Below, in pieces: positions 14,145 through 60,373 of a stretch of 64,000 nucleotides of DNA; the first letter of the stretch is position 1, and each line of letters opens with the position of its first letter. The notes beneath the pieces were generated by a model, which made no database searches, was not told where the DNA came from, and saw nothing but the letters and a program-made list of their open reading frames with translations. The position numbers and the translations under genes were made by a program. This DNA comes from a virus: the IMG/VR virus record IMGVR_UViG_3300022902_000008, one strand, 5' to 3'.

Positions 14145-14175
14145 GGTTAACAAATGAACCTTGTTGTGGTATATT
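14145..14175 (+). promoter_or_regulatory. GGTTAACA-class promoter
   Basis: GG-TTAACA-N17-TATATT with TGTG extension. Confidence 0.85.
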
Positions 14176-14199
14176 GTTGTCAGTTGAAAAGGAGGGCTA

Positions 14200-14559
14200 A
14201 TGTTCAACAAATCAATGATGACAGAATATCCTAGTGGAACAAAACATTGGTATCTAAATGGAAAGTTGCATCGAGAAGATGGTCCTGCTGCTGAGCATCA
14301 TAGTGGAACAAAAGGATGGTATCTAAATGGGGAGTGTCATCGAGAAGATGGCCCTGCTTATGAACATCCTGATGGATATAAAGAATGTTATCTCAATGGG
14401 CAATTTTATTATGACACCAAAGGGAAGTTGCACAATAATAATTTCCTGGTATCAAATGAATATACAGGCCTAGTAATAATAATGGGAGGGAAAAATAAAA
14501 TAAGGTTCATGAGAACAATAAATAATATATATCTGGTAATTAAATTTGAGGAGTTATAA
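14200..14559 (+). CDS. WYLNGxxHREDGPA beta-hairpin repeat protein (MORN-variant/YwqK-like), copy 1
   Basis: Two HREDGPA repeats plus conserved tail KGKLHNNNFL..Y.G..IIMGGKNKIRFM. Confidence 0.85.
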   Translation: MFNKSMMTEYPSGTKHWYLNGKLHREDGPAAEHHSGTKGWYLNGECHREDGPAYEHPDGYKECYLNGQFYYDTKGKLHNNNFLVSNEYTGLVIIMGGKNKIRFMRTINNIYLVIKFEEL

Positions 14560-14562
14560 ATA

Positions 14563-14862
14563 ATGTCACATAAATATAAAGTTGGTGATATTGTATGGGT
14601 TAAAATTCCACCAGCAAAGGACATTAAAAATAGAAAACATAATAAACATTTTATTGCTGCCTGTGGTGGTTGCAGTTGTCTAGGAAGAGTCAGCAAAGTA
14701 TTAAATCAAAACGGTTTAAATAATAATAATAATATCTCAGGTTGGCATTATAATGTTGAGCTTTCATTGCTATTCCCGCTTGAGCTTAACAACTTGTCTG
14801 CTGTTGATGAAAAATATAAATGGTCTATTGCCGAAGAATGGATTGATAGAAAAATAAAATGA
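14563..14862 (+). CDS. SH3/KOW-like paralogue family protein
   Basis: KYKVGDIVWVKIP...EEWIDRKIK. Confidence 0.75.
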   Translation: MSHKYKVGDIVWVKIPPAKDIKNRKHNKHFIAACGGCSCLGRVSKVLNQNGLNNNNNISGWHYNVELSLLFPLELNNLSAVDEKYKWSIAEEWIDRKIK

Positions 14863-15107
14863 CTTATAAATACAAATATGAAATTGGTGATATTGTATGG
14901 GTTAAAGAGGCTTTTTATTGGCCAAGAAAAGGCAGCTATTCTTTTTATACTGGACCAGTAAGCATTGTTAGTTGTGGATTGTCAGGAAAATATGATCATG
15001 ATATAAGGGGGATTGTATATGTAGTCAGATTGCCTGTTGGGGTATATGAAGGTCTTAGTATTATTGGAGAAAGCCAAATAAAAGGTTTAATAAATGAAAA
15101 TTTATAA
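14859..15107 (+). CDS. SH3/KOW-like paralogue family protein
   Basis: YEIGDIVWV...YTGPVSIV. Confidence 0.75.
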   Translation: MTYKYKYEIGDIVWVKEAFYWPRKGSYSFYTGPVSIVSCGLSGKYDHDIRGIVYVVRLPVGVYEGLSIIGESQIKGLINENL

Positions 15108-15369
15108 ATATAAAGTTGGTGATATTGTTTGGGTTAAAATTCCAAACTTAAGAAATGTTAAAAATGAAAATTGTAAAGGACATGCAGTTGTAAAAAAGGG
15201 TGGTTGTACCTTTGTTGCTGTTATTTTTGAGGTATATTCTCATAACAATAAATTTGGTTCTTGGGATTATGTCATTTCATTGCCTATTGGTTTTAGTCTT
15301 GAATATGGCACTAAAAAACTTAAAGAGTGGGCTATTGTCAAAGAGTGGGTTAAAGGGAAAGTAAAATGA
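15094..15369 (+). CDS. SH3/KOW-like paralogue family protein
   Basis: KYKVGDIVWVKIP...KEWVKGK. Confidence 0.75.
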   Translation: MKIYKYKVGDIVWVKIPNLRNVKNENCKGHAVVKKGGCTFVAVIFEVYSHNNKFGSWDYVISLPIGFSLEYGTKKLKEWAIVKEWVKGKVK

Positions 15370-15578
15370 CTTATAAATATAAAATTGGTGATATTGTGTG
15401 GATTAACAACTATCAGCATATGTGTGCAGGGAAGTTCATAACGATGTCAGGTCTTGCTATTATTCAACAAAGTTACATAAATGGTTCTAAAAAATATCTA
15501 GTTTCTTGGGTTGGGTTGCTGTCTGGTCGTTGGGTAGCAATAACGGAGAAAGATATTGACAAAAAAATTAATGTTTAG
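15366..15578 (+). CDS. SH3/KOW-like paralogue family protein
   Basis: KYKIGDIVWIN...SGLAII. Confidence 0.75.
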   Translation: MTYKYKIGDIVWINNYQHMCAGKFITMSGLAIIQQSYINGSKKYLVSWVGLLSGRWVAITEKDIDKKINV

Positions 15579-15804
15579 ACATAGAAAAGGTGATATTGTT
15601 TGGGCTAGTTGTTATATTGTTAGCTTTAATGGCGTTCTTGGGTTTTATAGGTGGCAATCATTTTCAGGAGTAGGAATTGTTTATCACCCAAGATTTCCTG
15701 GCAAATGTGGTAATTATTATGAATATATTATTAAGTTTGGGGAGCATATATATGGAATAGCCAAAGCAGATTGCACAAAAGGAATAAATAATGAAACATT
15801 TTAA
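15556..15804 (+). CDS. SH3/KOW-like paralogue family protein
   Basis: RKGDIVWAS...FSGVGIV. Confidence 0.7.
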   Translation: MTKKLMFRHRKGDIVWASCYIVSFNGVLGFYRWQSFSGVGIVYHPRFPGKCGNYYEYIIKFGEHIYGIAKADCTKGINNETF

Positions 15805-16129
15805 GCACATTTTTAAAAAGAAAGGATATAAGATAGACTGGCAATATGATGATGGTATTGGTTATAGTAACAAACATCATATTGTTCGAATTCTTTATAA
15901 GGAAGGTAAAGGAGATACTGTTTCAATGGGATCAGCGAAGTATTTTGACAGGTGGGCTAACTCAAGTCATATTAATTGGGAAATTATGGAAAAAAATAAT
16001 AATTGGACTGAAAAAATGGTTGAAGAAGACTTTTTGAACAACCTCAGAAATGCTGAATGGTTATGTTTAATTATTGCAAGGTTGTTGCCAACTCTTTTTG
16101 ACAACCCTCTTTTTAGAATTGATTTGTGA
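15791..16129 (+). CDS. Hypothetical protein
   Basis: Overlaps the upstream gene; in operon. Confidence 0.6.
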   Translation: MKHFKHIFKKKGYKIDWQYDDGIGYSNKHHIVRILYKEGKGDTVSMGSAKYFDRWANSSHINWEIMEKNNNWTEKMVEEDFLNNLRNAEWLCLIIARLLPTLFDNPLFRIDL

Positions 16130-16134
16130 CTTAT

Positions 16135-16165
16135 GGTTAACAAACAGGGTTGGTTGTGGTATAAA
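16135..16165 (+). promoter_or_regulatory. GGTTAACA-class promoter
   Basis: GG-TTAACA-N17-TATAAA, TGTG extension. Confidence 0.85.
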
Positions 16166-16200
16166 GGTTTTATTGATTGATATTTAAAAGGAAGGGACAA

Positions 16201-16344
16201 ATGGAAAGTATCAATGAAAAAATGGTTTGTGAGTTTATTGGTTCTGTTGATTGGGACAACAATAAGGAAGTACAAAAGCAAGACATAGAAGATCGTTACG
16301 GTGAAAACACATGGGCCTCAGATGATGTTTGGGAACAGTTTTGA
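16201..16344 (+). CDS. Small acidic protein (47 aa), not in the ORF track
   Basis: MESINEKMVCEFIGSVDWDNNKEVQKQDIEDRYGENTWASDDVWEQF; follows the promoter and a purine-rich RBS (AAGGAAGGGA). Confidence 0.65.
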   Translation: MESINEKMVCEFIGSVDWDNNKEVQKQDIEDRYGENTWASDDVWEQF

Positions 16345-16565
16345 AATTTTATAGTAATGAAATTAGAAAGTTATGTTGGGTTGATGGAAGGGTAGGTTTT
16401 TCATTGGGTGATCATTATGTTTATCGAGATTTTGTTGGGCCATTAATGATTATTTTCAAAGATACGTCAATGAAACAACAAGCTTTATATCTTGGGTTTT
16501 ATTCCAAAGATGAATATATGTGTCTTGTTTCGGAAGATGCAATTAAGGACATTATAGAAGGCTGA
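16329..16565 (+). CDS. SH3/KOW-like paralogue family protein (start probably TTG 16341)
   Basis: LCWVDG...FVGPLMI. Confidence 0.65.
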   Translation: MGTVLKFYSNEIRKLCWVDGRVGFSLGDHYVYRDFVGPLMIIFKDTSMKQQALYLGFYSKDEYMCLVSEDAIKDIIEG

Positions 16566-16847
16566 TTGATGAAAAAAAATAAAAAGTATAAAGCTGGCGA
16601 TGTTATTTGGTATCAGATTCCACTAAAAGAAGTTGCGGAGCTTACTGATTATCAAGCTTTAATTAATAATCATTTTTTATTAAGCTTTAAAAGGGCTGTC
16701 AAAGGTCTTGCTATTATTTCTGAACAGTCTACATGGAACCCCTGGGATTATGATATTGTTTTTGCTAACAAGTTAATTGTTGATAGATTAGAAATTGGTG
16801 GTTGTCAGATTCCTGAAAGTTGGGTTTTGGAAAAGGTAGAGATATGA
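16566..16847 (+). CDS. SH3/KOW-like paralogue family protein
   Basis: KYKAGDVIWYQIP...KGLAII...ESWVLEK. Confidence 0.75.
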   Translation: MMKKNKKYKAGDVIWYQIPLKEVAELTDYQALINNHFLLSFKRAVKGLAIISEQSTWNPWDYDIVFANKLIVDRLEIGGCQIPESWVLEKVEI

Positions 16848-17206
16848 TTGATTTGTACTTTACAAACAGCACATCTAAAGAAATATCTAGACGAACATTT
16901 CATTATCATTGCAAATCGTTAAGTTGGCAATTTATTGGTGGTGGACAATCATTAAAGTTTTCAAGAGTATTCTTTGATCGTTATGCATATGATAATTTTG
17001 CCGCAAATAAAATAATTTATGTTGGGCCAGTCGTTAGACGAAAAGTTATTTTTGTTAGTAAATTTAACCCTAAAGAACAAATGGCTTTTTTTACATATAC
17101 TTTCCCCAAGTTTGTTGGTGCAGAAAGAATAGTTTCGGGTTGGTTTATAAATAGGAAGGGTGACAAAATAACTTTATGTTCTGATGTTGATTGGTTTGAA
17201 AGATGA
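16820..17206 (+). CDS. Divergent YxGP-family protein
   Basis: YVGPVV motif; in the array. Confidence 0.55.
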   Translation: MGFGKGRDMIDLYFTNSTSKEISRRTFHYHCKSLSWQFIGGGQSLKFSRVFFDRYAYDNFAANKIIYVGPVVRRKVIFVSKFNPKEQMAFFTYTFPKFVGAERIVSGWFINRKGDKITLCSDVDWFER

Positions 17207-17544
17207 AATATATAAAAATTGAAACTAACTTTGGCCATTTAATTCAAAAAAGAAAACAATTTGAAATGTTCTTTATAGCAGGATTCAAATTTGATATAAT
17301 TAAACAAGAGGTTGCTTTTGTTAATTTGAAGTATAAGTTAACAAACGATCAATTCAATTATGTTGGCCCAGTTATATTAAAAAGGCTGCTTGGTGAAAAG
17401 GGAGAAGAAGATGTTGTTGTTATAATTGAAACATTTAAGTTGCCAGAAAGCCGATTAAAAAAGCTCATTGGGCTTAAGAGTTTACACGTTAAGAATGATG
17501 GGTTAATATTATTTATCAATACTGAAGCAAAAAATGAAATATAA
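17203..17544 (+). CDS. Divergent YxGP-family protein
   Basis: YVGPVIL motif; ATGA overlap. Confidence 0.55.
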   Translation: MKYIKIETNFGHLIQKRKQFEMFFIAGFKFDIIKQEVAFVNLKYKLTNDQFNYVGPVILKRLLGEKGEEDVVVIIETFKLPESRLKKLIGLKSLHVKNDGLILFINTEAKNEI

Positions 17545-17821
17545 TCTTGACAAAGGGTTAGTTTTCACTTATATTACTGAAGAAGGCAGAGAAGGGCTTC
17601 CAGTATATGTTGTACTAATTAATAAACAGGGAGACTTGCTTTATAATAATATAGCTTTGTTATATAAAGAATGTCATGGTAACTATTTTAGCTTTAAGTT
17701 TTTAACTAAAAATATATATAATGTTGTGTTTTCTAAAATAGACAATACAAATTGGTTCATAAATAAGAGGAACATACAGAAACTTTATTATTTAAATGGG
17801 GGAAATGGTTATGGGAAGTGA
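17534..17821 (+). CDS. Hypothetical protein
   Basis: Overlapping ORF in operon. Confidence 0.5.
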   Translation: MKYNLDKGLVFTYITEEGREGLPVYVVLINKQGDLLYNNIALLYKECHGNYFSFKFLTKNIYNVVFSKIDNTNWFINKRNIQKLYYLNGGNGYGK

Positions 17822-19709
17822 TAATATTAAAAATAAAATTGTTGGCATTGATCTTGGGACTTCTCGATCTGCAATTGCGGTGATGGAAGCAGGCAAGACA
17901 AGCATTATTATTAATCAAGAGGGCGATAGAACAACACCATCAGTTGTTAGTTTAAGTGACGGTTCAGTTGGGATATCAGCAAAAAGGGCTGGAGTTGTTC
18001 ACCCGGAATCTACAATTTATTCAGTAAAAAGGTTGATTGGTAGAAGGTATAAAGATATTAAGGGTGAGTTAAAAAACTTATCATATTCTGTCTTTGAAAA
18101 CAGCAATGGTTCAACAAAAATTGTTTATGATGATAACGAACATTCACCACAAGAGATCTCTTCAAAGATATTAATTAAACTTAAGAAGGCCGCTGAAGAT
18201 TATCTTGGGGAAAAGGTTGAGAAGGCTGTTATTACCGTTCCTGCTTATTTTGATGATTCTCAAAGAATGGCAACAAAGGTTGCAGGCGAAATTGCTGGGT
18301 TGGATGTTGTAAGGATCATCAATGAGCCGACAGCGGCAGCTTTAGCTTATGGTGTTGATAAAAAAGATGATTTTAAGGTTATGGTTGTTGATATTGGCGG
18401 GGGAACAACGGACTTCTCAGTACTTGAAGTTGGTGGCGGAATTGTTGAGGTATTATCAACAAGTGGCGATACATATTTAGGTGGTGATGATATAGATAAT
18501 GTTTTGTTGGGTCATTTTATTGAGGAATTTAAAAATCAGACTAACATCGATGCCTCTGGTGATAAGATGGTTATGCAGAGGTTAAAAGAGGCAGCGGAGA
18601 AGGCGAAGATTGAGTTGTCCCTAATGTTGGAGACTGAGGTTAACTTACCATTCCTTTCAGCAAATGAAACTGGTCCTAAGCATTTTATTTATAAGCTTAG
18701 TAGGAGTAAGTTCGAGGTAATGATTATGCCATTGTTAGAGAGGGCCTTGGTCCCATGTAAAATTGCATTGGAAGATGCTAAACTAAGTGTTGATGATATA
18801 GATGAGGTTTTGTTTGTTGGTGGAACAACAAGAATTCCATTAGTGACGAAAATTATGGTTGATTTTTTTGGAAAAGAGCCAAACAAGAGTGTTAATCCAG
18901 ATGAAATTGTTGCAATGGGTGCGGCTATCCAGGGGGCGGTTCTTTCTGGTGACGATGCCGTGAAAGATATTTTGTTGTTGGATGTCACTCCATTGTCTTT
19001 GGGGATTGAAACTTTAGGTGGAGTATTTACAAGAATTATTGAAAGAAACACAACAATCCCTTGTGTAAAATCGGAGATCTTCTCTACAGCAGCAAATAAC
19101 CAACCAGCAGTATCTATTGTTGCCTATCAGGGGGAAAGAAATATTGCTGCAAATAATAAACTTTTAGGTAAGTTTGATTTAATTGGAATTCCACCTGCCC
19201 CAAAAGGTACTCCACAAATTGAAGTTAAATTTAATTTGAATTCAGATGGCATTTTGAATGTTGTTGCAACTGATAAGGTGACTGGAGAAAATAAAGATAT
19301 TACAATTACATCTTCTTGTGGGCTTTCTGATGAAGAAATTGAAAAGATGAAAAATGATGCAGAAGAGAACAAAGTAAAAGATGAGGAAAAAATTGAAATT
19401 ATCAATTTAAGGAATGAACTTGAAACATTAAAAATTTCTGCTGAGAGCCTTTTTAAAGAGCATTCAGGGAAGGCCTATGTCAACCCATTGGGTGATGTTA
19501 TAAAATCCACTGAGGAGCTTTTGGGGAATTCTGACACCACGTCTGAGGCCTTAAATGAGCAGAAAAAAATGTTAGAAAGTATTCTCCACAACATCTCAAA
19601 GGAAATGTATCAGGGCTGTTCTGATGATGACCTAAGTTGCGATGCCAGGGGGGAAAACAGTAAAAGAGGTGAGGTAATTATTGACGCAGAATTTGAGGAT
19701 ATTGAATAA
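17796..19709 (+). CDS. dnaK: Hsp70 chaperone DnaK
   Basis: GIDLGT, RTTPSVV, AVITVPAYF, IINEPTAAALAYG, DIGGGTTD, LLLDVTPLSLGIET, PQIEVKF, C-terminal DAEFE. Confidence 0.97.
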   Translation: MGEMVMGSDNIKNKIVGIDLGTSRSAIAVMEAGKTSIIINQEGDRTTPSVVSLSDGSVGISAKRAGVVHPESTIYSVKRLIGRRYKDIKGELKNLSYSVFENSNGSTKIVYDDNEHSPQEISSKILIKLKKAAEDYLGEKVEKAVITVPAYFDDSQRMATKVAGEIAGLDVVRIINEPTAAALAYGVDKKDDFKVMVVDIGGGTTDFSVLEVGGGIVEVLSTSGDTYLGGDDIDNVLLGHFIEEFKNQTNIDASGDKMVMQRLKEAAEKAKIELSLMLETEVNLPFLSANETGPKHFIYKLSRSKFEVMIMPLLERALVPCKIALEDAKLSVDDIDEVLFVGGTTRIPLVTKIMVDFFGKEPNKSVNPDEIVAMGAAIQGAVLSGDDAVKDILLLDVTPLSLGIETLGGVFTRIIERNTTIPCVKSEIFSTAANNQPAVSIVAYQGERNIAANNKLLGKFDLIGIPPAPKGTPQIEVKFNLNSDGILNVVATDKVTGENKDITITSSCGLSDEEIEKMKNDAEENKVKDEEKIEIINLRNELETLKISAESLFKEHSGKAYVNPLGDVIKSTEELLGNSDTTSEALNEQKKMLESILHNISKEMYQGCSDDDLSCDARGENSKRGEVIIDAEFEDIE

Positions 19710-19712
19710 GCA

Positions 19713-20054
19713 ATGAAAGTAAGGCAAGGATTTGTCAGCAATAGTTCAACAAGCAGCTTTATTATTACTAACAAGTCTGATAAAATGCTAAATGTAGTTG
19801 ATTTGGTGATTGATTTGTCTGATAGGCTAGGGGAGTCTTATCTTGACATTTCTTTGAGACAACTATTAAATGATGCTGAGCAATTATATAGGAATAACTA
19901 TAACTTAAAGCCCAAAATAAGTATAAAGTTATATGTTTCAAATGAAGATGATAATTATGCAAGCTGTTTTTTAAGTCAGATCTTAAATAAAGATAGAGAT
20001 GAGGTTAATGAAAGTGAAAATTTTACATGGGAATTTAAAAATTATTATGGATAA
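19713..20054 (+). CDS. MKxRxGFVSNSSS-family protein 1
   Basis: N-terminus MKVRQGFVSNSSTSSF. Confidence 0.8.
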   Translation: MKVRQGFVSNSSTSSFIITNKSDKMLNVVDLVIDLSDRLGESYLDISLRQLLNDAEQLYRNNYNLKPKISIKLYVSNEDDNYASCFLSQILNKDRDEVNESENFTWEFKNYYG

Positions 20055-20068
20055 ACGGAGGTAAAAAA

Positions 20069-20662
20069 ATGAAAATTAGAACAGGCTTTGTTAGTAACTC
20101 CTCATCAAGTAGTTTTATTTGTAACGTGTGTGGAGAAAATGTTTCAGGTTATGACATGATGTTAAGTGAAGCAGAAATGTATGAGTGTGGTAATGGTCAT
20201 ATTTTTTGTGAAGGTCATGTTAAGGGCGGGTTTGATTATCATGAGATTCTTGGTAATGAAGAGAAGTTATTGCAGTTTGTTGAAAATAAATTAAATGGTC
20301 AAATTACAACAACGAAAAATAACATAAGGAAACTTAAGGCCACTAATTCAAATTGGAATTCATCAGGCTATGAAGCAAACATTAGCAATCTTGAAAAAGA
20401 ACTTAGTGAGTTGAAAAATAAAGAATATGAAGAAATTATAGAAGAGTGGGAAAACTTTTTTGAGGAAGGAGAGTATAGGTATGAATTTCCTATAGACTAT
20501 TGTCCTGTTTGTACTTTAGAGGCATTCAGAGATGAAGATTTGTTAGAGTTTATGTTGGCATCTCAAGGGAAAAACAAAACTAATATTGAAGAGGCAATTA
20601 AAAAATCATTTAAAAACATTAATGAGCTTAATGAATTTATTGGAAAAAATAAAAAGGGTTAA
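20069..20662 (+). CDS. MKxRxGFVSNSSS-family protein 2 (Zn-binding Cys motifs)
   Basis: MKIRTGFVSNSSSSSF; CNVC, CGNGHIFC, CPVC. Confidence 0.8.
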   Translation: MKIRTGFVSNSSSSSFICNVCGENVSGYDMMLSEAEMYECGNGHIFCEGHVKGGFDYHEILGNEEKLLQFVENKLNGQITTTKNNIRKLKATNSNWNSSGYEANISNLEKELSELKNKEYEEIIEEWENFFEEGEYRYEFPIDYCPVCTLEAFRDEDLLEFMLASQGKNKTNIEEAIKKSFKNINELNEFIGKNKKG

Positions 20663-20665
20663 AAC

Positions 20666-21169
20666 ATGAAAGTTCGTCAAGGTTTTGTTAGTAACAGTTC
20701 AAGCACATCATTTGTTATTAAAGAGGAGTCGATTAAAACTACAGCAGAATGTGCATTGCAAATGTTAAAAATTGTTAAAGATGATTATTTTGATGAGGAT
20801 AGGGAGTCAATTATTGAAGGAATTAGAAAATATTCTAATGGGAAAATTTTGATGGCAATAAAATGGCTGCAAAACAATATTAAATATGATGGAAATATAT
20901 ATTTTCCATGGTCAATTAATTATAAAACATATATTTGGAAAAATAATAATGGGATATTTGTTGACACATGCAATAATCATTACTGGCATAATCATTTTGC
21001 TGTGGATTCTAGAATGGATCATTATTGTTGGTATACTTCTAAATATAATGACACACCGGAAAAACTACCTAGCGACACTCCAGATCCAATTAATAATTAT
21101 TTTGATGAATATTTAGACTTAAGTGATCTTACTTTTGTTGATATTAAAGATAATAAATATTGCTTTTAA
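20666..21169 (+). CDS. MKxRxGFVSNSSS-family protein 3
   Basis: MKVRQGFVSNSSSTSF. Confidence 0.8.
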   Translation: MKVRQGFVSNSSSTSFVIKEESIKTTAECALQMLKIVKDDYFDEDRESIIEGIRKYSNGKILMAIKWLQNNIKYDGNIYFPWSINYKTYIWKNNNGIFVDTCNNHYWHNHFAVDSRMDHYCWYTSKYNDTPEKLPSDTPDPINNYFDEYLDLSDLTFVDIKDNKYCF

Positions 21170-21184
21170 TAAGTATGGTTTGGG

Positions 21185-21460
21185 TTGATAAAGGTAAGAT
21201 CGAATGGGGGTCCAATGATTAGCAAAGAAATAGTTGAAGAGGGAAAAGCATATTGGGTTCAAGTTAGCCATATAGAGACATTTACTACTGGTTCTTTTTC
21301 TTATCCAATTAACTATACTGGCGTGGGGGTTGTCAATAGGAATAAATATTATAAAGAACATCCTTATTTTTTTATTAATTTGTCAAAACACACTACTAAT
21401 TATTTGTATATGGTTTTAGCCAAAAACATTAATTTTATTGAAAAGATAGGAGAGTTATAA
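21185..21460 (+). CDS. SH3/KOW-like paralogue family protein
   Basis: EGKAYWVQV...YTGVGVV. Confidence 0.6.
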   Translation: MIKVRSNGGPMISKEIVEEGKAYWVQVSHIETFTTGSFSYPINYTGVGVVNRNKYYKEHPYFFINLSKHTTNYLYMVLAKNINFIEKIGEL

Positions 21461-21463
21461 TAA

Positions 21464-22084: not shown

Positions 22085-22486
22085 ATGGTTGATCAAAAGA
22101 ATAATTCTATATGGTTAGCATGGTTAGGGAAAGTTCTTTGGGTTGATTATAGTTTTATTCCTTATTATTATGTTAAAAATATTATAGATTATGAGCCAAT
22201 TAGAACAAAGACAGAAGCCGTTAAAAGACAATATTGTGGCCCTGCAATTGTTGCTGGTATTGATTTTGGAGTCAGCGATGCTTCAGGTGGAAATAAAAAT
22301 TTAACTTTTCCATATTATCAGTTACAATTAGCGAACAAGGAAGTTAATATTGAAAACAAAGTTTATAGTATTATTAGGCCCATAAGAAGAGATCCAACTG
22401 ACAACATTTGGTTAAACAGATATATATTTTTGGAATTGTTAAAAAATAATGGAGAGAAAGAAAAGGTTAAAGGAAACGAATGTTAG
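22085..22486 (+). CDS. SH3/KOW-like paralogue family protein
   Basis: GKVLWVD...YCGPAIV. Confidence 0.65.
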   Translation: MVDQKNNSIWLAWLGKVLWVDYSFIPYYYVKNIIDYEPIRTKTEAVKRQYCGPAIVAGIDFGVSDASGGNKNLTFPYYQLQLANKEVNIENKVYSIIRPIRRDPTDNIWLNRYIFLELLKNNGEKEKVKGNEC

Positions 22487-24253: not shown

Positions 24254-24264
24254 AGTTATAAATA

Positions 24265-25683: not shown

Positions 25684-25700
25684 ATTGGAGAAGAGTTTTA

Positions 25701-47441: not shown

Positions 47442-47469
47442 TAAAAAAACAAGATAGGAGAATTTTCAT

Positions 47470-48407: not shown

Positions 48408-48478
48408 AAATATAAGTTCTTTTTATATAAAAAAATAATAATTATAATATTGAAACATTAATTGTTTAGGATAAATTT

Positions 48479-52175: not shown

Positions 52176-52177
52176 TA

Positions 52178-52921: not shown

Positions 52922-53397
52922 TTAAAGAATGGCAAGGAAGTCTTCAAGAGCAAAATGGAAATGTTAATTTTACAAACTGGGTAAGGCCTGATCATGATGC
53001 AATTAGGTTAGAATATGATGTTGAGTATAAAAACCATATTGTATATTCTTTTGGAGATATTTTTCCAACTTTGGAGGACTTTGAAAGGGCTGTAAAGGAT
53101 GGTGAAATAGTTAGCTTAACTAAAAGCTTAGACTCAATGGTTGATAACAGAAGTAGAACGAAAAATATGAAGCAATTAACTAGCTTGTTAAAATCATATA
53201 GATCATGGCCAGAGTTTAGAAACGAAAAAACTACCCAAGCAATTGTTGACGGTTTTAAAAACAATGAACCAATGAAAATGCCATTTATCTTGGAATACGC
53301 ACCTGATGATTGGTGGATAATGTCTGGTAACACAAGGCTAGACATTGCATATATGATGGGAATTATCCCAAAAGTTATTATTATAAAAGGATATTAA
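52903..53397 (+). CDS. ParB-like domain protein
   Basis: MPFIL...IMSGNTRL. Confidence 0.55.
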   Translation: MGTSRLVKEWQGSLQEQNGNVNFTNWVRPDHDAIRLEYDVEYKNHIVYSFGDIFPTLEDFERAVKDGEIVSLTKSLDSMVDNRSRTKNMKQLTSLLKSYRSWPEFRNEKTTQAIVDGFKNNEPMKMPFILEYAPDDWWIMSGNTRLDIAYMMGIIPKVIIIKGY

Positions 53398-53399
53398 AC

Positions 53400-53630
53400 A
53401 TGAGAAGAAAAAAAAGAGTACAGTTTAATGTGGCAGAAAAAATTTGGGTATGTATTGAGAACATCATAGAAAGGTATGAGGGGGTGGGCAAAATAGTCGG
53501 GTCAGAATATAAAAAATATGGTTATTATTATGTTAAAATTCCGAAACCAATAAATCAAACATATGATCATTTAGTTTATTGGGATAAAATAAAGAAAATA
53601 AAAAATGGAGAACCGATTGAGCATGAATAA
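53400..53630 (+). CDS. SH3/KOW-like paralogue family protein
   Basis: FNVAEKIWV...YEGVGKIV. Confidence 0.7.
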   Translation: MRRKKRVQFNVAEKIWVCIENIIERYEGVGKIVGSEYKKYGYYYVKIPKPINQTYDHLVYWDKIKKIKNGEPIEHE

Positions 53631-53961
53631 CACTAAAAAACAAATAGAAAAATATATATTAGAACACATTAATGATGTAGAGAAACAAAAGATTATAAAT
53701 GAATTCATGGGGAGATTGCAAAATAAAATGATGTCAATAAAAACAGCAGAAACTCCAATGTCCGTTGCACAAGATATTGATAAAACTGTTGATGTAAATG
53801 TAATCAAACAAAAATATGGTGACAAATTTGTTAAAAAGATTATTGATCTTTATCTTTCTAGGGCAGAAGTCGAAGAGAGTGAAAAGAAAAAATGGGAAGA
53901 GGAAGTTAGACGACAGTTAGCTAACAGAAAGAAGCTTTGGGGAGAAAGTGAGGGGGTTTAA
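53605..53961 (+). CDS. Hypothetical helical protein
   Basis: In operon. Confidence 0.55.
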   Translation: MENRLSMNNTKKQIEKYILEHINDVEKQKIINEFMGRLQNKMMSIKTAETPMSVAQDIDKTVDVNVIKQKYGDKFVKKIIDLYLSRAEVEESEKKKWEEEVRRQLANRKKLWGESEGV

Positions 53962-54291
53962 TTGAAGTCAGGCAGCAAGCTTGGAGAATTAAATCTTTAT
54001 TTTCTTAATTTAGATCAAAAAACATTAGCAGATATGATTTGGAAAGTTAACATCCACCAAGCTCTTTACAAGGGAATAACAATTCCAGATCAAACTTATT
54101 ATGGCCCAGTCATTCTAGATAGAAGAAAAATTGGTTGGGATATATTATTATTTCCAAAAAAAATTAAAATGATTAAAACAAGTGAGTACTACATTGGCGT
54201 AGTAAGATCATCAGCTAACTTTAAAAGCGATAGCCTAGATCTTAATTATGCTATTCATTCAGAAGTGGTTAACAAACTAATAGAAATATGA
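53962..54291 (+). CDS. SH3/KOW-like paralogue family protein (divergent)
   Basis: DMIWKV...YYGPVIL...LFPKK. Confidence 0.6.
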   Translation: MKSGSKLGELNLYFLNLDQKTLADMIWKVNIHQALYKGITIPDQTYYGPVILDRRKIGWDILLFPKKIKMIKTSEYYIGVVRSSANFKSDSLDLNYAIHSEVVNKLIEI

Positions 54292-54297
54292 TATAAT
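54267..54297 (+). promoter_or_regulatory. GGTTAACA-class promoter (leaderless gene downstream)
   Basis: TTAACA-N17-TATAAT; ATG at 54305. Confidence 0.85.
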
Positions 54298-54304
54298 GTT
54301 TTTC

Positions 54305-54585
54305 ATGAAAAGAAAAAGCTATAAGGTTGGAGATACAATTTGGATTAAATCAGGATTACAAATGGAAAGTTTCATCGAACTGATGGTCCTGCTGCTGAAT
54401 ATCATGATGGATTAAAATATTGGTATCTAAATGATCAGTTTTATGATCACATCAAAGGAAAGTTGCACAACAACAACTTCCTGATATCAGACAAATATAC
54501 AGGACCAGTAATAATAACGGGAGGAAAAAATAAAACAAAGTTCATGAGAACAATGAACAACAAACACTTGGTAATTGAACCATAA
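54305..54585 (+). pseudogene. Out-of-frame chimera of an SH3/KOW-family 5' end and an HRTDGPA-repeat gene 3' end
   Basis: MKRKSYKVGDTIWIKS (frame stops at 54415), then in the -1 frame NGKFHRTDGPA...KGKLHNNNFL...VIEP* to 54585. Confidence 0.75.
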
Positions 54586-54834
54586 AAGCAAATTTATACA
54601 ACAAACAATATCAGATAAAATTTATATAACTAACAAAATAAATAATATCAATTTTTATTGCACACATAAGGCCCCAAACTGATACCTAAAAAACCAAACT
54701 TGACCTGTAATCAACTTGAATGTAAAGCCTATATACAACCATTGATTAATACTAGAATGATTTATAAGGGAAGTGAGAAACATTTCTGTTAAAATAAGGA
54801 CGAAAGTTATATAAGAAAATTGTCTGACTTAAAT

Positions 54835-54865
54835 GGTTAACAAAGTGAATGGTTTGTGGTATTGT
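54835..54865 (+). promoter_or_regulatory. GGTTAACA-class promoter
   Basis: TTAACA-N17-TATTGT, TGTG extension. Confidence 0.75.
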
Positions 54866-54883
54866 ATTTAAAAGGGAGGGTTC

Positions 54884-55237
54884 ATGAACAACAAGCCAAC
54901 AATGAAAGAATATTCTGATGGGACAAAAGAATGGTGGTTGAATGGAGCGTTGCACAGAGAGGATGGTCCGGCTGGAGAATATCCTAGTGGATCAAAACGT
55001 TGGTATTTAAATGGGCTTCTATATCGAGAAGATGGCCCTGCTGTTGAATGGGCTAATGGAGAGAAATTTTGGTGGTTAAATAGTCAAGATTATGAATATA
55101 CCAAAGGAAAGCTGCACAACAATAACTTCTTAACATCAGATCAATATACAGGGCCAATAATAATAATGGGGGGAAAGAATAAAATAAGGTTCATGAAGGC
55201 AACAAACAATAAACATTATGTTATTAAAGGCTATTAA
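54884..55237 (+). CDS. HREDGPA repeat protein, copy 2
   Basis: MNNKPTM.EY..G.K.WWLNG..HREDGPA; conserved tail. Confidence 0.85.
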   Translation: MNNKPTMKEYSDGTKEWWLNGALHREDGPAGEYPSGSKRWYLNGLLYREDGPAVEWANGEKFWWLNSQDYEYTKGKLHNNNFLTSDQYTGPIIIMGGKNKIRFMKATNNKHYVIKGY

Positions 55238-55240
55238 ATA

Positions 55241-55468
55241 ATGAACATCCAATATAAAGATATAAAAATCAATGATGTGGTCTGGTTTAAAACAATAAAT
55301 AATGAATATGGTTCTGGAATTGGAATTGTCATAGATAAACGGTGTGAAGAGGTAAATAAAATATATGTTAAAATTCCAACCATCCACTTAAATGAAGAAG
55401 GCTATAAACTTCATTATATATTTCCCTTTGAGATTAAAAAGATAATTAAAAAAGGTAAAACTAAATAA
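55241..55468 (+). CDS. SH3/KOW-like paralogue family protein
   Basis: IKINDVVWFK...SGIGIV. Confidence 0.7.
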   Translation: MNIQYKDIKINDVVWFKTINNEYGSGIGIVIDKRCEEVNKIYVKIPTIHLNEEGYKLHYIFPFEIKKIIKKGKTK

Positions 55469-55736
55469 ATTCAAGAAGTTTATGCATTTTAAAATAATTA
55501 AAATGATGAATGGATATTGTAATTGACTTGTTATATCTTGGCACAAGCCTGCCAATATTAACAGGATATAGATAATTTAAAACCTTGTGTGGAAAATAAA
55601 TAATAACAAGATCAGTATTGTTGCCACAAGAACAAACAATTGCAGGTCCAATATATAAACAATCAACACAGGCGTTGTTCGAATGATATATGTTAAGCAA
55701 ATGCCTGTTAATCCATATGTTGTGTTTGTTGGTCAA
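55461..55736 (-). CDS. SH3/KOW-like paralogue (IWIxK subfamily)
   Basis: IWINRH...YIGPAIV...FPHK. Confidence 0.7.
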   Translation of the reverse strand: MTNKHNIWINRHLLNIYHSNNACVDCLYIGPAIVCSCGNNTDLVIIYFPHKVLNYLYPVNIGRLVPRYNKSITISIHHFNYFKMHKLLEFI

Positions 55737-55990
55737 TCCAAAACCTCAATACATCCTTCAGATATTAAATAATCTAACTCAAGACCATTATAATAACCAA
55801 GTATGTCAGAAGATTGAACACGATTGTTAACTTTAATGTTAATCTTATAAGGAAAAGAAATGTAATAATCTGTTGAGCCAAACCTTGTTGTTGGCTTTAT
55901 AATACAAGGACCAATATAATTATAATAGAAGTTTGGAGGACTCGAACCCTCGATATGTTTATGAATCCATATTTTCCTTAATTTGTTCAT
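55733..55990 (-). CDS. SH3/KOW-like paralogue (IWIHK subfamily)
   Basis: MNKLRKIWIHKH...YIGPCII...FPYK. Confidence 0.75.
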   Translation of the reverse strand: MNKLRKIWIHKHIEGSSPPNFYYNYIGPCIIKPTTRFGSTDYYISFPYKINIKVNNRVQSSDILGYYNGLELDYLISEGCIEVLD

Positions 55991-56020
55991 GATTTATATA
56001 TCCTTTCTAATTGTAAACCC

Positions 56021-56353
56021 TTATTCATATGAGATAAAAAATAATAATCAAACATAACTGATTGCACCTTTAGATACCAAATTAATAAATAATTCATTGT
56101 TAATAACAGCAACATTATCCTTACAAAGAATACCAATTGCAGGAGGATAATTAATAACGTTTATCTTTTTAGGAAATAAAATATTATGATAATCAAAATT
56201 ATATTTCCTTATCCTTAATATTGCTGGGCCAATATAATCATAATAATAGTTTAGATTTGTACTTATGATATGTTTATGAATCCATATGTTTTTTAGTTTG
56301 TTCATGTGATCCTTTTATTCATATGAGATAAAAAATAATAATCAAACATAACT
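56021..56353. repeat. 39-bp perfect direct repeat (56021-56059, 56315-56353)
   Basis: ttattcatatgagataaaaaataataatcaaacataact occurs twice, spanning stop codons of adjacent paralogues. Confidence 0.9.
56048..56305 (-). CDS. SH3/KOW-like paralogue (IWIHK subfamily)
   Basis: MNKLKNIWIHKH...YIGPAIL...FPKK. Confidence 0.75.
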   Translation of the reverse strand: MNKLKNIWIHKHIISTNLNYYYDYIGPAILRIRKYNFDYHNILFPKKINVINYPPAIGILCKDNVAVINNELFINLVSKGAISYV

Positions 56354-56605
56354 AATATAACCTTCAGATAACAATCTTTCTAATTGTACATGTTCAAATG
56401 GTTGACCAAATTTAATATTATATTTATAATATATGCTTTTACTATTGTTGAATTTTGTTAATGTTACCTTTCTAGGAAATATAATATTATAATAACCAGA
56501 ATCAAATCGGCTTGTTGTCAATAAAGCAAAACCAATGTATTTATAATGATAATCTACATGATATGCAGTAGGCATTGTAATATTCTTATGAATCCATATA
56601 ACCAT
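56342..56605 (-). CDS. SH3/KOW-like paralogue (IWIHK subfamily)
   Basis: IWIHKN...YIGFALL...FPRK. Confidence 0.75.
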   Translation of the reverse strand: MVIWIHKNITMPTAYHVDYHYKYIGFALLTTSRFDSGYYNIIFPRKVTLTKFNNSKSIYYKYNIKFGQPFEHVQLERLLSEGYISYV

Positions 56606-56626
56606 TTTTTTTATATCCTTTTTAAT

Positions 56627-56775
56627 TGTGTATTATTGTTAATAACTTGTGAGTTATATAATTAATTGTTATGTAAAATAATAATTGTCAGTTTAATAGG
56701 CTTGATTGATGATTGCTTAAAGGGGGGTATAAATTTGACAACAATAACCAACAAATTCTCCACAAGTTTTCCACA
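56627..56775. promoter_or_regulatory. Cluster of DnaA-box-like 9-mers
   Basis: TTCTCCACA (56756) and TTTTCCACA (56767) forward; TGTGTATTA, TGTTAATAA, TGTGAGTTA (56627-56656) reverse. Confidence 0.5.
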
Positions 56776-56913
56776 ATCAAATAACAATAAACTTACAATA
56801 AACAACAAATACAATAATAACAATAAAACCAACAATCAGCAATATTTTTAACAAACCTTTTATCAACCGTATATATTGGCACGGTTATTGATTAGGTTTA
56901 TTTTATCAAGCAT

Positions 56914-56925
56914 ATGTCAAAGAGC
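56914..56925 (-). promoter_or_regulatory. boxA-like antitermination element
   Basis: GCTCTTTGACAT on the - strand just downstream of the 56953-56983 promoter. Confidence 0.6.
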
Positions 56926-56948
56926 TTATTTATTCTTTTGACTTCTAA

Positions 56949-57272
56949 CTACATTATAGCACAAGATGGTGTATTTGTTAACCTATTTGGGGGATTTATT
57001 TTATATAAAATGCTTTTTTTGCAAACTGAGAAGGCTTCGTATTTACTTATGAGAGCAAGGGAATTTATGGTATATGCAGTGCATGAGAAGTTTTTTAAGC
57101 TAAAAAATGTTCTTAAGCTAGGGTTTTCTGTTATTATTGCCAACCCCATATAGATTAATTTATTTTTTTTGATCTCATGATTATTTTCATGTTCAAAGTA
57201 AGCTATGACATGTTCATATACTTTAACCCAAACTATGTCACCTTTTTTATATTTTGGTTTGCTGTTATTCAT
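56949..57272 (-). CDS. SH3/KOW-like paralogue family protein
   Basis: KPKYKKGDIVWVK...YMGLAII. Confidence 0.75.
   Translation of the reverse strand: MNNSKPKYKKGDIVWVKVYEHVIAYFEHENNHEIKKNKLIYMGLAIITENPSLRTFFSLKNFSCTAYTINSLALISKYEAFSVCKKSILYKINPPNRLTNTPSCAIM
56953..56983 (-). promoter_or_regulatory. GGTTAACA-class promoter
   Basis: Reverse complement GG-TTAACA-N17-TATAAT. Confidence 0.85.
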
Positions 57273-57622
57273 TGTTCCTTAATTACCAAGTATGTATTGT
57301 TTGTTGTTTTCATGAATCTTATTTTATTTTTCCCCCCCATTATTATTATTGGCCCTGTATATTGATCTGATATCAGGAAGTTATTATTGTGCAGTTTTCC
57401 TTTGATGTGACTATAATGTTGATCATTGAGAAACCATTCTTTATATCCATCAAAACAATCATATGCAGGACCATTTTCACGATGACGTTCTCCACTTAGA
57501 TACCATATTTTTGTTCCGTTGGAATGTTCAATAGCAGGCCCATCAGTTCGATGACACTCTCCATTTAGATACCATCGTTTTGATCCATCAGGATATTCTT
57601 TCATTATTGGCTTGTTGCTCAT
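57269..57622 (-). CDS. HRxDGPA repeat protein, copy 3
   Basis: MSNKPIM..HRTDGPA..HRENGPA; conserved tail. Confidence 0.85.
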   Translation of the reverse strand: MSNKPIMKEYPDGSKRWYLNGECHRTDGPAIEHSNGTKIWYLSGERHRENGPAYDCFDGYKEWFLNDQHYSHIKGKLHNNNFLISDQYTGPIIIMGGKNKIRFMKTTNNTYLVIKEQ

Positions 57623-57646
57623 GATTCCTCCCTTTCAACTGACAAC

Positions 57647-57677
57647 AATATACCACAACAAGGTTGATTTGTTAACC
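57647..57677 (-). promoter_or_regulatory. GGTTAACA-class promoter
   Basis: Reverse complement TTAACA-N17-TATATT. Confidence 0.85.
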
Positions 57678-57910
57678 AAATTAGGCATTTATTTTCTTTT
57701 TTATTGATGGTTTTTATATAAGCCAAAAAGCGTGCCAAAAAGTTATATAACTTGGGTTTTTTTTGTACTTTTTGCTCCTATTGATTTAAGGTATTGCAAG
57801 TGGAATTCTATATATTTTTGTTTCAATTTCCTATAGGGGGATAAGAAACATTTTAGTTAATTTTCTAATTGTGTTATACTGACATAAATGGGGTAGAAAT
57901 AATCATTGAT

Positions 57911-58111
57911 TTACGGGCTTATATGGTAAGCGGAAGAGAAGGTTGAGACAGGAAAGTGTACACAACTAGTTGTTGGTGTTAATCCTGGCCAAATTACTTT
58001 ATAATAAATTGGTTTAGATTTTTTATAAATATAGCCAATAACAATTATTGGTCCAACATAGTTTTTATGGGTAATCCACACAACATTATTTATTTTATAT
58101 TCTGGTTTCAT
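57911..58111 (-). CDS. SH3/KOW-like paralogue family protein
   Basis: EYKINNVVWIT..YVGPIIV...WPGL. Confidence 0.7.
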   Translation of the reverse strand: MKPEYKINNVVWITHKNYVGPIIVIGYIYKKSKPIYYKVIWPGLTPTTSCVHFPVSTFSSAYHISP

Positions 58112-58115
58112 ATAG

Positions 58116-58349
58116 TTATTTTATGTCACAAAACAAATAATGTTTATGCATAGGCAAGTGTACATATCTAATTGATGATTTTAATCCTGGCCAAGTTAGT
58201 TTATAGTATTGCAGTTCTATATCTTGATCATCAAAATATGGTTTGTGTGTGGTATAGCCAACAATAATAGCTAGTCCTTTATATGGTGGGTATTGATCAT
58301 AGTTAATCCATATTACATCTCCAGGTTTATATTCTAGTTTTGGTTTCAT
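58116..58349 (-). CDS. SH3/KOW-like paralogue family protein
   Basis: EYKPGDVIWIN..YKGLAII...WPGL. Confidence 0.75.
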   Translation of the reverse strand: MKPKLEYKPGDVIWINYDQYPPYKGLAIIVGYTTHKPYFDDQDIELQYYKLTWPGLKSSIRYVHLPMHKHYLFCDIK

Positions 58350-58549
58350 GTAGTTACTTCTCCTTTTATATGGTGGTTGCCTATGCACCAACAATCTGAA
58401 TCCATTGTTTTTATATCATAAGCGCCATATGGTAAAACATTTGTTATTATTGCAATACCATAATATTTATATCTAATTGGATTTATTGGTGATTGAACAT
58501 GTATCCATATGGCATCACCTATTTTATATTTTGGTTTGTTGTTATTCAT
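58346..58549 (-). CDS. SH3/KOW-like paralogue family protein
   Basis: KPKYKIGDAIWIH...YYGIAII. Confidence 0.75.
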   Translation of the reverse strand: MNNNKPKYKIGDAIWIHVQSPINPIRYKYYGIAIITNVLPYGAYDIKTMDSDCWCIGNHHIKGEVTT

Positions 58550-58968
58550 TGTTCCTCAATTACCAAATATTTATTGTTTATTGTTCTCATGAACTTTATT
58601 TTATTTTTTCCTCCCATTATTATTACTGGACCTGTATACTGATCTGATACTAAGAAATTGTTGTTGTGCAGCTTCCCTTTGATATGATAATAAAGTATGT
58701 CATTTAGATACCATACAAATGTTCCATCAGAATATTCAACAGCAGGACCATCTTCTCTATGATGGTTCCCATTTAGATACCATGATTTTGTTCCATCAGG
58801 ATATTCAACAGCAGGACCATCAATTCGATGATGCTTTCCATTTAACCACCATTCTTTATGGCCATTAGAATCTTCAACAGCAGGGCCATCAGTTCGATGA
58901 AAATAGCCATTTAGGTGCCATGATTTTGTTCCATTAGGATGTTCTGTCATTATTGGCTTGTTGCTCAT
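58546..58968 (-). CDS. HRxDGPA repeat protein, copy 4 (three repeats)
   Basis: HRTDGPA, HRIDGPA, HREDGPA; conserved tail. Confidence 0.85.
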   Translation of the reverse strand: MSNKPIMTEHPNGTKSWHLNGYFHRTDGPAVEDSNGHKEWWLNGKHHRIDGPAVEYPDGTKSWYLNGNHHREDGPAVEYSDGTFVWYLNDILYYHIKGKLHNNNFLVSDQYTGPVIIMGGKNKIKFMRTINNKYLVIEEQ

Positions 58969-58992
58969 GATTCCTCCCTTTCAACTGACAAC

Positions 58993-59023
58993 AATATACC
59001 ACAACCAACTTCATTTGTTAACC
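58993..59023 (-). promoter_or_regulatory. GGTTAACA-class promoter (divergent pair, leftward)
   Basis: Reverse complement TTAACA-N17-TATATT. Confidence 0.85.
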
Positions 59024-59063
59024 TATTTCAAGAAATATTTTATTAAAAAAAGTTTATTTATGG

Positions 59064-59094
59064 GGTTAACAAACGGGATAGTTTGTGGTATAAG
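59064..59094 (+). promoter_or_regulatory. GGTTAACA-class promoter (divergent pair, rightward)
   Basis: TTAACA-N17-TATAAG, TGTG extension. Confidence 0.8.
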
Positions 59095-59119
59095 GGTGTT
59101 GAAGGAGGGAGAAAATAAA

Positions 59120-59374
59120 ATGAGCCAACCAAAATATAAGTTAGGAGACATAGTTTGGGTTAAAACGGATAATACTAATTATCCTGAAGATCTTACTGAT
59201 CATAACAATAACAATAAGATATATTATCAATTAGCAAGGATACAAAATTGGTATTTAAGGGAAAAGGAAGTTTCAGATAAATCTTTTACTATATATACAG
59301 TTAAATATTGTTGCAATACTTTTTTGTTGAACAATGTTTCAGAGATGGAAATACTGAGGAAGGAGGACATTTAA
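59120..59374 (+). CDS. SH3/KOW-like paralogue family protein
   Basis: PKYKLGDIVWVK...VSEMEI; AAGGAGG RBS. Confidence 0.75.
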   Translation: MSQPKYKLGDIVWVKTDNTNYPEDLTDHNNNNKIYYQLARIQNWYLREKEVSDKSFTIYTVKYCCNTFLLNNVSEMEILRKEDI

Positions 59375-59638
59375 ATGCTAACACAGAAGATTTTTAATCC
59401 TGTTGATTATTATTTTGAATGGACTGATGATGGATGGTATGAGTGGGATCGAAGGGCGGCTCACACAATGGCTCTTAAGGATCGGAACAAGAAAGTAAGG
59501 GAGCTAAGAGGGAAAGGACACAAGGTTTCAGTCTTCAGTCTTTCAGGCCAGTTAATTACAAAGGGTGGAATTGGAACTGGGAAGCCTCAAGTAGAGTTTG
59601 TTGTTAATTGTTATGGTTACAATATGTGGGGAAAATAA
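59375..59638 (+). CDS. Hypothetical protein
   Basis: AAGGAGG RBS. Confidence 0.65.
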   Translation: MLTQKIFNPVDYYFEWTDDGWYEWDRRAAHTMALKDRNKKVRELRGKGHKVSVFSLSGQLITKGGIGTGKPQVEFVVNCYGYNMWGK

Positions 59639-59639
59639 A

Positions 59640-59990
59640 ATGATTATTAATGGAAAAGAGTATCCAACAGTGTACCCAACTAAGGAAGATGTTGTTTATA
59701 ATTATAAGGTGGGTGACATTATTTATTTTAAGGTATTAAATGACAGTATTTATATTGAAGTGGTTAACCTTGTTAATGATAAGATATTATCTCCTGGCAG
59801 AAGAATTAGTAGAGAAGGAGATTTTTATGTTTTAGATTCTCCTCGTTGTCTCATAGGTATAATTGATTTTTGTGATTATGTTAATGAATGTGATTATTAT
59901 TATCCTGTTTACACTGTTGTTACGCTTAATGATAAGCAATCAATCAATGTTTCAGAATTAGAGATTGTAGAAAGGGTTGAGGCTTCATGA
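59640..59990 (+). CDS. SH3/KOW-like paralogue family protein
   Basis: YKVGDIIYFK...VSELEI. Confidence 0.7.
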   Translation: MIINGKEYPTVYPTKEDVVYNYKVGDIIYFKVLNDSIYIEVVNLVNDKILSPGRRISREGDFYVLDSPRCLIGIIDFCDYVNECDYYYPVYTVVTLNDKQSINVSELEIVERVEAS

Positions 59991-60373
59991 ACAACAAGCC
60001 AACAATGACAGAACATTCTAATGGAACAAAACATTGGCTTTTAAATGAAAAACTTCATCGAGAAGATGGTCCTGCAATAGTTCGGCCTAATGGAACAAAG
60101 GCATGGTATCTAAATGGAAAACGTCATCGAGAAGATGGGCCTGCTATTGAAAGTCTATATAAAAGAAAAGAATGGTGGTTGAATGGAAAGTGTTATTGTG
60201 ATATTATCAAAGGAAAGTTGCATAACAACAATTTCCTGGTATCAGATCGATATATAGGACTAGTAATAATAATGGGGGGAAAAGAAAGAGTAAGGTTCAT
60301 GAAGACAACAAACAACAAATATTTTGTAATTGAGGAAAATAATACTTCAGAAGTGGTTAACAAACAGGGTTGA
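59987..60373 (+). CDS. HREDGPA repeat protein, copy 5
   Basis: MNNKPTM; two HREDGPA repeats; conserved tail. Confidence 0.85.
   Translation: MNNKPTMTEHSNGTKHWLLNEKLHREDGPAIVRPNGTKAWYLNGKRHREDGPAIESLYKRKEWWLNGKCYCDIIKGKLHNNNFLVSDRYIGLVIIMGGKERVRFMKTTNNKYFVIEENNTSEVVNKQG

Follow-up and report, generated by a model that had tools for sequence, protein, structure and literature searches.

We analysed a 64,000-nt stretch of DNA from IMG/VR virus record IMGVR_UViG_3300022902_000008 (the whole stretch is called the window), which covers the part of an uncultured marine jumbo phage genome devoted to replication and nucleotide metabolism, and focused on a dispersed set of small repeat-protein genes that mostly stand first in their operons and are here called lead genes. 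An earlier reading of the letters alone, the original prediction, had described five intact lead genes and one remnant, with two to three repeats and a nearly invariant tail, and had joined them with adjacent SH3/KOW genes into a module of two families that amplifies and shuffles. The genes themselves are all present: searching the window with the 140-aa copy by tblastn found five intact genes of 117-140 aa and one remnant (54361-54579) and no further copy. A sixth intact paralogue of 143 aa lies outside the window, on a contig as long as the window's presumed source (216,854 nt). The lead genes and their surroundings, with model confidence as the predicted local distance difference test (pLDDT), are laid out as follows.

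14145-14199, plus strand: promoter (TTAACA-N17-TATATT with TG, sigma-70-type), short leader and Shine-Dalgarno sequence of copy 1
14200-14559, plus strand: lead copy 1, 119 aa, with N-cap, two full and one degenerate MORN-like units and the conserved tail
14563-15804, plus strand: five tightly packed SH3-like genes (starts 14563, 14859, 15094, 15366, 15556), 3' of copy 1
54269-54358, plus strand: promoter and 5' end (~18 codons) of an SH3-like gene, joined to the lead remnant in a different frame
54361-54585, plus strand: truncated lead remnant, with one full unit, the degenerate unit and the tail, and no start codon
54835-54883, plus strand: promoter and variant leader of copy 2
54884-55237, plus strand: lead copy 2, 117 aa
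55241-55468, plus strand: SH3-like gene, 3 nt 3' of copy 2
55461-59023, minus strand: minus-strand block in an otherwise plus-strand genome, with three promoter-led units, namely four barrel-subfamily genes (55461-56605) and lead copies 3 and 4 with barrel genes
56949-57272, minus strand: SH3-like gene, overlapping the stop of copy 3 by 4 nt
57269-57622, minus strand: lead copy 3, 117 aa
57623-57677, minus strand: promoter and exact 27-nt leader of copy 3
57911-58549, minus strand: three SH3-like genes (58346-58549, 58116-58349, 57911-58111) coupled to copy 4, the first modelled as an SH3-like barrel
58546-58968, minus strand: lead copy 4, 140 aa, with three full units; modelled, repeats at pLDDT >90 and tail at 43-55
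58969-59023, minus strand: promoter and exact leader of copy 4, divergent from the plus-strand promoter at 59064
59064-59990, plus strand: promoter, SH3-like gene (59120-59374), an unknown 87-aa gene and a second SH3-like gene (end 59990), in an operon closed by lead copy 5
59987-60373, plus strand: lead copy 5, 128 aa, without its own promoter, its C-terminal extension running into the promoter at 60355

Four of the five lead copies are the first cistron behind a TTAACA-N17-TATAxT promoter and are followed by an SH3-like gene across a gap of at most 3 nt or a 4-nt overlap, as had been claimed. The fifth (59987) is the last gene of its operon and lies 3' of an SH3-like gene. The -35 part of these promoters, which have a TG extended -10, is GGTTAACA, found 19 times in the window against 2.55 expected. 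A 27-nt leader is exact at 14163-14189 (plus strand), 57633-57659 (minus) and 58979-59005 (minus), with 0 such occurrences expected by chance, and the longest exact match between the cassettes of copies 3 and 4 (reverse strand from 57622 and 58968) is 59 nt, from -37 to +22; both of these previously noted identities held to the letter. The leader element was not found elsewhere in the window, and scans of viral contigs and metagenome contigs for the tail or the leader gave no match. From the -10 box to the Shine-Dalgarno sequence the same three cassettes are identical or nearly so (14174-14195, 57627-57648 and 58973-58994), although nearby synonymous sites differ by 28-50%. Such exact conservation could mark a regulatory site or a recent gene conversion.

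Each lead protein is built from an N-cap (MxNKPxM), full 23-residue WYLNGxxHRxDGPA units (two per copy, three in the 140-aa copy), one degenerate unit and a tail of ~45 residues. Across 14 units, positions G3, W7, L9, R15, P19 and A20 are invariant, and variation falls mostly on positions 6, 12, 13 and 21 (and on 1 and 2), which bears out the earlier statement that it concentrates at fixed hairpin positions. Twenty columns of the tail are the same in all six copies, with an identity of 69-83%; its description as nearly invariant also stands, as does the count of two to three repeats. Copy 5 has in addition a 10-residue C-terminal extension (60337-60373, plus strand), which arises because its reading frame enters the next promoter, with GGTTAACA at 60355 translated within it. 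Internal initiation at the conserved KGKL codons, which would release a free tail, was considered and rejected, the Leu codon being TTG in three copies and CTG in the other three. Leu codons CTA and CTG together make up 21 of 45 in the lead genes versus 42 of 498 in six large open reading frames (ORFs), and this distinct usage may point to a foreign origin of the lead genes.

The remnant has lost its start and first unit, and directly before it, in another reading frame, stand the opening ~18 codons of an SH3-like gene (start 54305, with a promoter of its own). This join identifies the remnant as a product of deletion or fusion. We found no slippery site on reading 54340-54415 and discarded a programmed frameshift into the remnant. 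Despite the missing start, its frame is open for 79 codons (54349-54585, plus strand), and its tail gives a dN/dS of 0.13-0.22 against copies 1-4 and 0.51 against copy 5; it is either a recent truncation or still used somehow. The 249 nt 3' of it (54586-54834) contained no ORF and no barrel-gene relic.

To judge the fold of the lead proteins, we used an AlphaFold2 model built with 35 homologues as the alignment, in which the repeat part forms stacked hairpins (pLDDT >90), while the tail, at 43-55, is probably made of beta strands. The top Foldseek matches of the repeat model were MORN1, radial-spoke proteins, MORN4 and junctophilin (probability 0.8-0.97, E 0.03-0.1), and a Foldseek-independent search (VIA) returned the CPAP G-box at Z 7.3 and MORN4 at Z 6.6, with a root-mean-square deviation (rmsd) of 3.4 over 94 residues. 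The period of 23, the single-layer sheet of hairpins in the model and the scores for MORN4 (Z 6.6) and MORN1 (probability 0.90-0.97) all agree with a MORN repeat. On the other hand, no window copy matched the Pfam MORN families (PF02493 / PF07661) at E up to 1, and longer relatives reached only 19.5-21.2 bits for MORN_2, for which the cut-off is 29.6. Pfam DUF6745 (PF20530) scored window copies at 20.7 and 14.7 bits, below its 27-bit cut-off, with the match confined to profile positions ~63-88 of 206, that is, to the repeat motif; longer relatives pass (32-57 bits) only through repetition of that same motif. Sequence searches of the PDB and of NCBIfam gave no match, and PHROGs returned only weak families of unknown function. 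Together, the model places the repeat part among MORN-like single-layer beta sheets, as a fold class and without Pfam MORN membership.

The repeat is common in other phages. A protein search with the lead found 49 relatives, with E down to 1e-65, most of which have only the repeats in common, and IMG/VR holds at least 550 matching stretches, from which we fetched 79 loci. These encode 210 ORFs with at least two units (range 2-15, median length 150 aa). Tandem arrays occur in many large phages, with the N-cap and a tail of ~35-55 residues constant within the array and unit number varying; one locus (L023) has 12 repeat genes in 6 kb, and further arrays lie in L025, L013, L009, L005 and L066. 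Between phage lineages the tails are entirely different. Among GenBank phages, Celeribacter phage P12053L and Agrobacterium phage Atu_ph07 carry the repeat. The lead genes belong to the same very large and unstudied phage family, having an N-cap, units within the 2-15 range, a lineage-specific tail and more than one copy in the genome; a literature search on DUF6745 and on MORN repeats in phages found no study of the family. Marine long-read viral metagenomes have been reported to be enriched in MORN-repeat proteins (PMC9238414). Two of the fetched loci, L023 and L070, are the two ends of one 203,774-nt IMG/VR contig and hold arrays with one conserved tail and at least 16 genes, and its assembly was probably interrupted within one large array. 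Fusions of the repeat module to MazG and to DUF3310 also occur in other phages (L043:2946-3692, L033:3935-4588).

The neighbours of the lead genes belong to a second expanded family. An iterated hidden Markov model (HMM) gathered 26-27 members of one small family in the window, recognizable by YKxGDxVW, an insert of variable length, YxG(L/P)AII and a C-terminal strand. The gene adjoining the 140-aa lead (58346-58549, minus strand) was modelled by AlphaFold2 as a barrel of four to five strands (13-19, 28-39, 43-48 and 60-64; pLDDT 76), and the 50 listed matches of this model were mostly SH3-like small barrels at Z 4.7-6.3 and a TM score of ~0.5. As a small barrel of four to five strands, the array model falls within the SH3-like fold, at the level of fold class. 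None of five array proteins matched Pfam, including KOW (PF00467), at E up to 1, and no significant relatives of the family appeared outside this phage among 5.8 billion proteins. Of the SH3/KOW label that these genes had been given, the SH3-like fold is supported by the model, and KOW finds no Pfam match in the five proteins. The four tandem genes at 55461-56605 (minus strand) form a subfamily (IWIHK...YxYIGPxI...FPxK) with its own minus-strand promoter at 56981, and are convergent with the plus-strand gene at 55241-55468, which they overlap by 8 nt.

We aligned the cassettes in pairs, each with 150 nt of sequence before it and 400 nt after it, and this delimited what was copied. Similarity runs from about -55, at the -35 box, to the lead stop codon only, and in copies 3 and 4 it continues for 30-60 nt into the conserved start of the next gene. 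As the SH3-like genes downstream of the cassettes resemble one another no more than random members of the family do, what was copied is the promoter, leader and lead ORF and not the array. The proposal that lead gene and SH3-like array amplify together is not supported by this alignment, which shows no co-duplication of the arrays. Copies differ by 15-28% in DNA along their whole length, and by their dS of 0.34-0.98 they are old. Comparison between copies gives the tail a dN/dS of 0.08-0.29, and the N-cap together with the repeats 0.36-0.86; pooled over all pairs, dN/dS is 0.07 at scaffold positions, 0.20 in the tail and 1.45 at variable positions, the last value being biased upward because these positions were picked for being variable. 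By these ratios, the tail and the repeat scaffold are under purifying selection and the surface positions evolve freely. Segment identities switch partner, with unit 1 grouping copies 3 and 4 and unit 2 grouping copies 4 and 5, which is mild evidence for exchange between copies. Identical lead proteins recur on 11-24 contigs of different assemblies, with one variant differing by one residue, and this argues against rapid rewriting or ongoing amplification. What survives of the claim that the family amplifies and shuffles is therefore past rearrangement, as seen in the remnant, the differences in repeat number, the inverted block and the mild mosaicism, but not ongoing amplification or hypervariation, against which the old dS and the recurring identical proteins both speak.

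We then compared how closely the two families are tied. That four of five lead genes lie directly before a barrel gene exceeds the 18% expected window-wide (P ~0.005) and the 23-28% expected locally (P 0.01-0.02). Five other promoters in the window (35254, 36867, 42832, 54267 and 59064) have a barrel gene directly next and no lead gene, an arrangement about as frequent as that with a lead gene. Barrel-family genes were found neither within 4 kb in the 79 repeat loci of other phages nor in five whole large-phage records with repeat arrays, two of which are >90% complete. The linkage of lead and array in other phages, named beforehand as the point to look for, is absent from all of these, and this absence indicates that the linkage is peculiar to this lineage. 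Co-folding of the 140-aa lead with its downstream barrel gave a score of 0.00, which, lacking controls, weighs neither for nor against binding. Of the suggestion of a variable binder with variable partners, the first half fits the lead protein, which has a fixed scaffold, a free surface and a constant tail, while the pairing with barrels is disfavoured by the missing co-duplication and by the missing linkage elsewhere.

Altogether, we lean, with some reservation, toward the reading that the lead genes are repeat-family members kept as dispersed old paralogues, encoding early host-directed binders and spread by recombination at promoter and barrel-gene 5' repeats. Our inferences here are early expression, a binder function and recombination at the flanking repeats. 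At least six old paralogues are dispersed, mostly as first cistrons of sigma-70-type, probably early, operons with SH3-like mini-barrels. On its left the copied unit would end at the dispersed promoter repeat, and on its right at the conserved barrel-gene 5' motif (KYKxGDxVW), whose repeat is a ~40-nt conserved gene start in families D3, D5 and D6. Because dispersed repeats lie on both sides of the unit and the phage encodes a UvsX-like recombinase and a gp32-like protein, its own homologous recombination could copy, convert, delete or invert the unit, and the remnant and the inverted block would be by-products. The lead proteins would be made early by the host RNA polymerase and would form a panel of intracellular binders, in which the varied sheet face gives specificity for targets, probably host proteins, and the constant tail does something common to all of them, for example docking, oligomerisation or hand-over to a partner that they share.

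Several observations weigh against this reading. The adjacency of lead and barrel genes, at P ~0.005-0.02, is somewhat above chance and may carry an unexplained function. The exact leader could reflect a regulatory site instead of gene conversion, and the dN/dS of 1.45 carries the bias noted above. Fold matches below Z 8 assign a fold class only. Finally, gain, loss and movement of copies are judged from one genome of this lineage.

The model put forward by the original prediction, in which lead and downstream SH3-like proteins form a two-component functional and evolutionary unit, draws on the same adjacency, with its 3-nt gaps and 4-nt overlaps (chance 0.005-0.02), on the confinement of both the lead tail and the barrel family to this lineage, and on the YxGPxII motif that both families carry, a shared motif that had been noted and is real. 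However, the arrays were not copied with the lead genes, five promoters lead straight to an SH3-like gene, barrel genes (~26) outnumber the five lead genes, copy 5 is last and not first in its operon, and other phages with the repeat family do without the barrels, so we regard such a unit as unlikely. Programmed variation of a shufflon-like or diversity-generating-retroelement-like (DGR-like) kind, inverting or rewriting the cassettes, might be suspected from the inverted lead copies that bracket a 3.5-kb minus-strand block and from the variation at fixed positions. Yet no reverse transcriptase or site-specific recombinase was seen among the 20 large and mid-size window ORFs scanned (small ORFs were only partly covered), the copies diverge by 15-28% over their whole length, the same proteins recur unchanged on 11-24 contigs of different assemblies, and the variable positions are the ordinary exposed positions of the repeat family; we consider this explanation highly improbable.

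A further proposal concerns the origin of the tail only and is compatible with the reading we prefer, namely that the tail comes from one of the phage's own SH3-like barrel genes, truncated and fused when an imported repeat gene met a local barrel gene. Tails score 6.3-8.7 bits against the barrel HMM, within the top 0.1-1.2% of 1800 shuffles; the tail HMM, run against 388 window ORFs, has barrels 36865 (E 3e-5), 57911 (E 0.01) and 55461 (E 0.034) as its best non-lead matches; and BLASTP of the tail with 36865 finds 11/26 identities at a pairwise E of 5e-5. In addition, the model has three beta strands in the tail, and the remnant shows that barrel and lead genes get fused. Profile-profile comparison (hhalign), on the other hand, gives a probability of only 5-13% over 11 columns, the matches land on different barrel parts in different members, tail pLDDT is only 43-55, and a short hydrophobic beta-strand motif can be convergent. 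A profile of six tails, searched against 1.84 billion representatives, found only the phage's own paralogues and one spurious 8-fold RTX-like repeat protein, and a protein atlas search with the tail gave no match above 0.80. The sequences make descent of the tail from the barrel family plausible without proving it, and we hold it as a tentative idea that is rather doubtful at present. More speculative still, and something to which we give little credence, is that the tail as a barrel fragment docks the MORN-like binder onto co-transcribed SH3-like mini-proteins, for example by strand complementation; the phage would then build adaptors of two parts, sheet and barrel, each variable and combined at will, out of two expanded families that co-occur only in this lineage.

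As to the wider setting, GC content in the window is 28-39%, and the coding strand has strongly more G than C. Annotated ORFs include a UvsX-like recombinase, a DnaB-like helicase, ribonucleotide reductase, a DnaE-like polymerase and a MoxR-like ATPase, and the window also encodes ThyX, a 5'-3' exonuclease, a gp32-like protein, a methyltransferase and Hsp70. No close relatives of this phage were found in IMG/VR or among GenBank phages, and the nearest phages by DnaE-like polymerase share only 20-29% identity. The stretch is present in 24 seawater metagenome runs (2018 and 2020), with no RNA run among those listed. In the gene for the UvsX-like recombinase (12358-14019, plus strand), the PHROG match is split in three stretches, which we read as an insertion that looks like an intein, judging by its ~140 residues with Cys first and His-Asn last. 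The Hsp70/DnaK gene (17796-19709, plus strand) lies directly 3' of the first small-gene island, and its only phage relatives at the DNA level are dnaK genes of huge uncultured phages.

The HRxDGPA/MORN-like family is among the commonest expanded gene families of large phages, and what differs here is its layout, with single promoter-led copies set across a replication region and coupled to a second expanded family. If the lead proteins are host-directed binders, a fixed frame with few free positions would be a natural small binder scaffold, and the constant tail would mark a shared downstream step. The cassette boundaries offer a concrete example of how, in a phage proficient in recombination, gene turnover can be organised by short repeats at many sites, here promoters and the conserved starts of genes.

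Among known systems, the lead genes can be compared with the HRxDGPA multigene family of other phages (L009, L013, L023, L025 and L005), with which they share the N-cap, the unit, the variable unit number, the conserved tail and the multiple copies. They differ in being dispersed and not tandem, each heading or closing an SH3-like operon, and in a tail that is beta-strand by a low-confidence model and carries the barrel-family motif; the tails of several other lineages are, in composition only, rich in Ala, Leu, Glu and Lys. With MORN proteins (MORN1 6t68/6t69/6t4d, MORN4-Myo3a 6jle, junctophilins and radial-spoke proteins), the modelled repeat part shares the 23-residue period and the stacked hairpins of a single-layer antiparallel sheet, a shape that holds a partner in the MORN4-Myo3a complex (6jle). 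The MORN consensus, however, is YxGxWxxGxxxGxG where the lead family has WYLNGxxHRxDGPA, and the phage proteins are far shorter (two to three units) and end in a lineage-specific tail. The array barrel resembles PWWP of Shuguo (Z 6.3, rmsd 2.1 over 54 residues) and the MRG15 chromo barrel (Z 6.3, rmsd 2.2 over 56), and also matches Tudor domains and the KOW domains of DSIF and NusG (KOW Z 5.1-5.2); it departs from these known small barrels in its insert of variable length between strands 1 and 2 and in belonging to none of their sequence families. Marseillevirus has an expanded MORN-repeat family. Large viruses with expanded repeat-protein families resemble the window in carrying many old small repeat paralogues per genome, whereas the reports on them are annotations that describe neither a promoter-led cassette nor a link to a barrel family.

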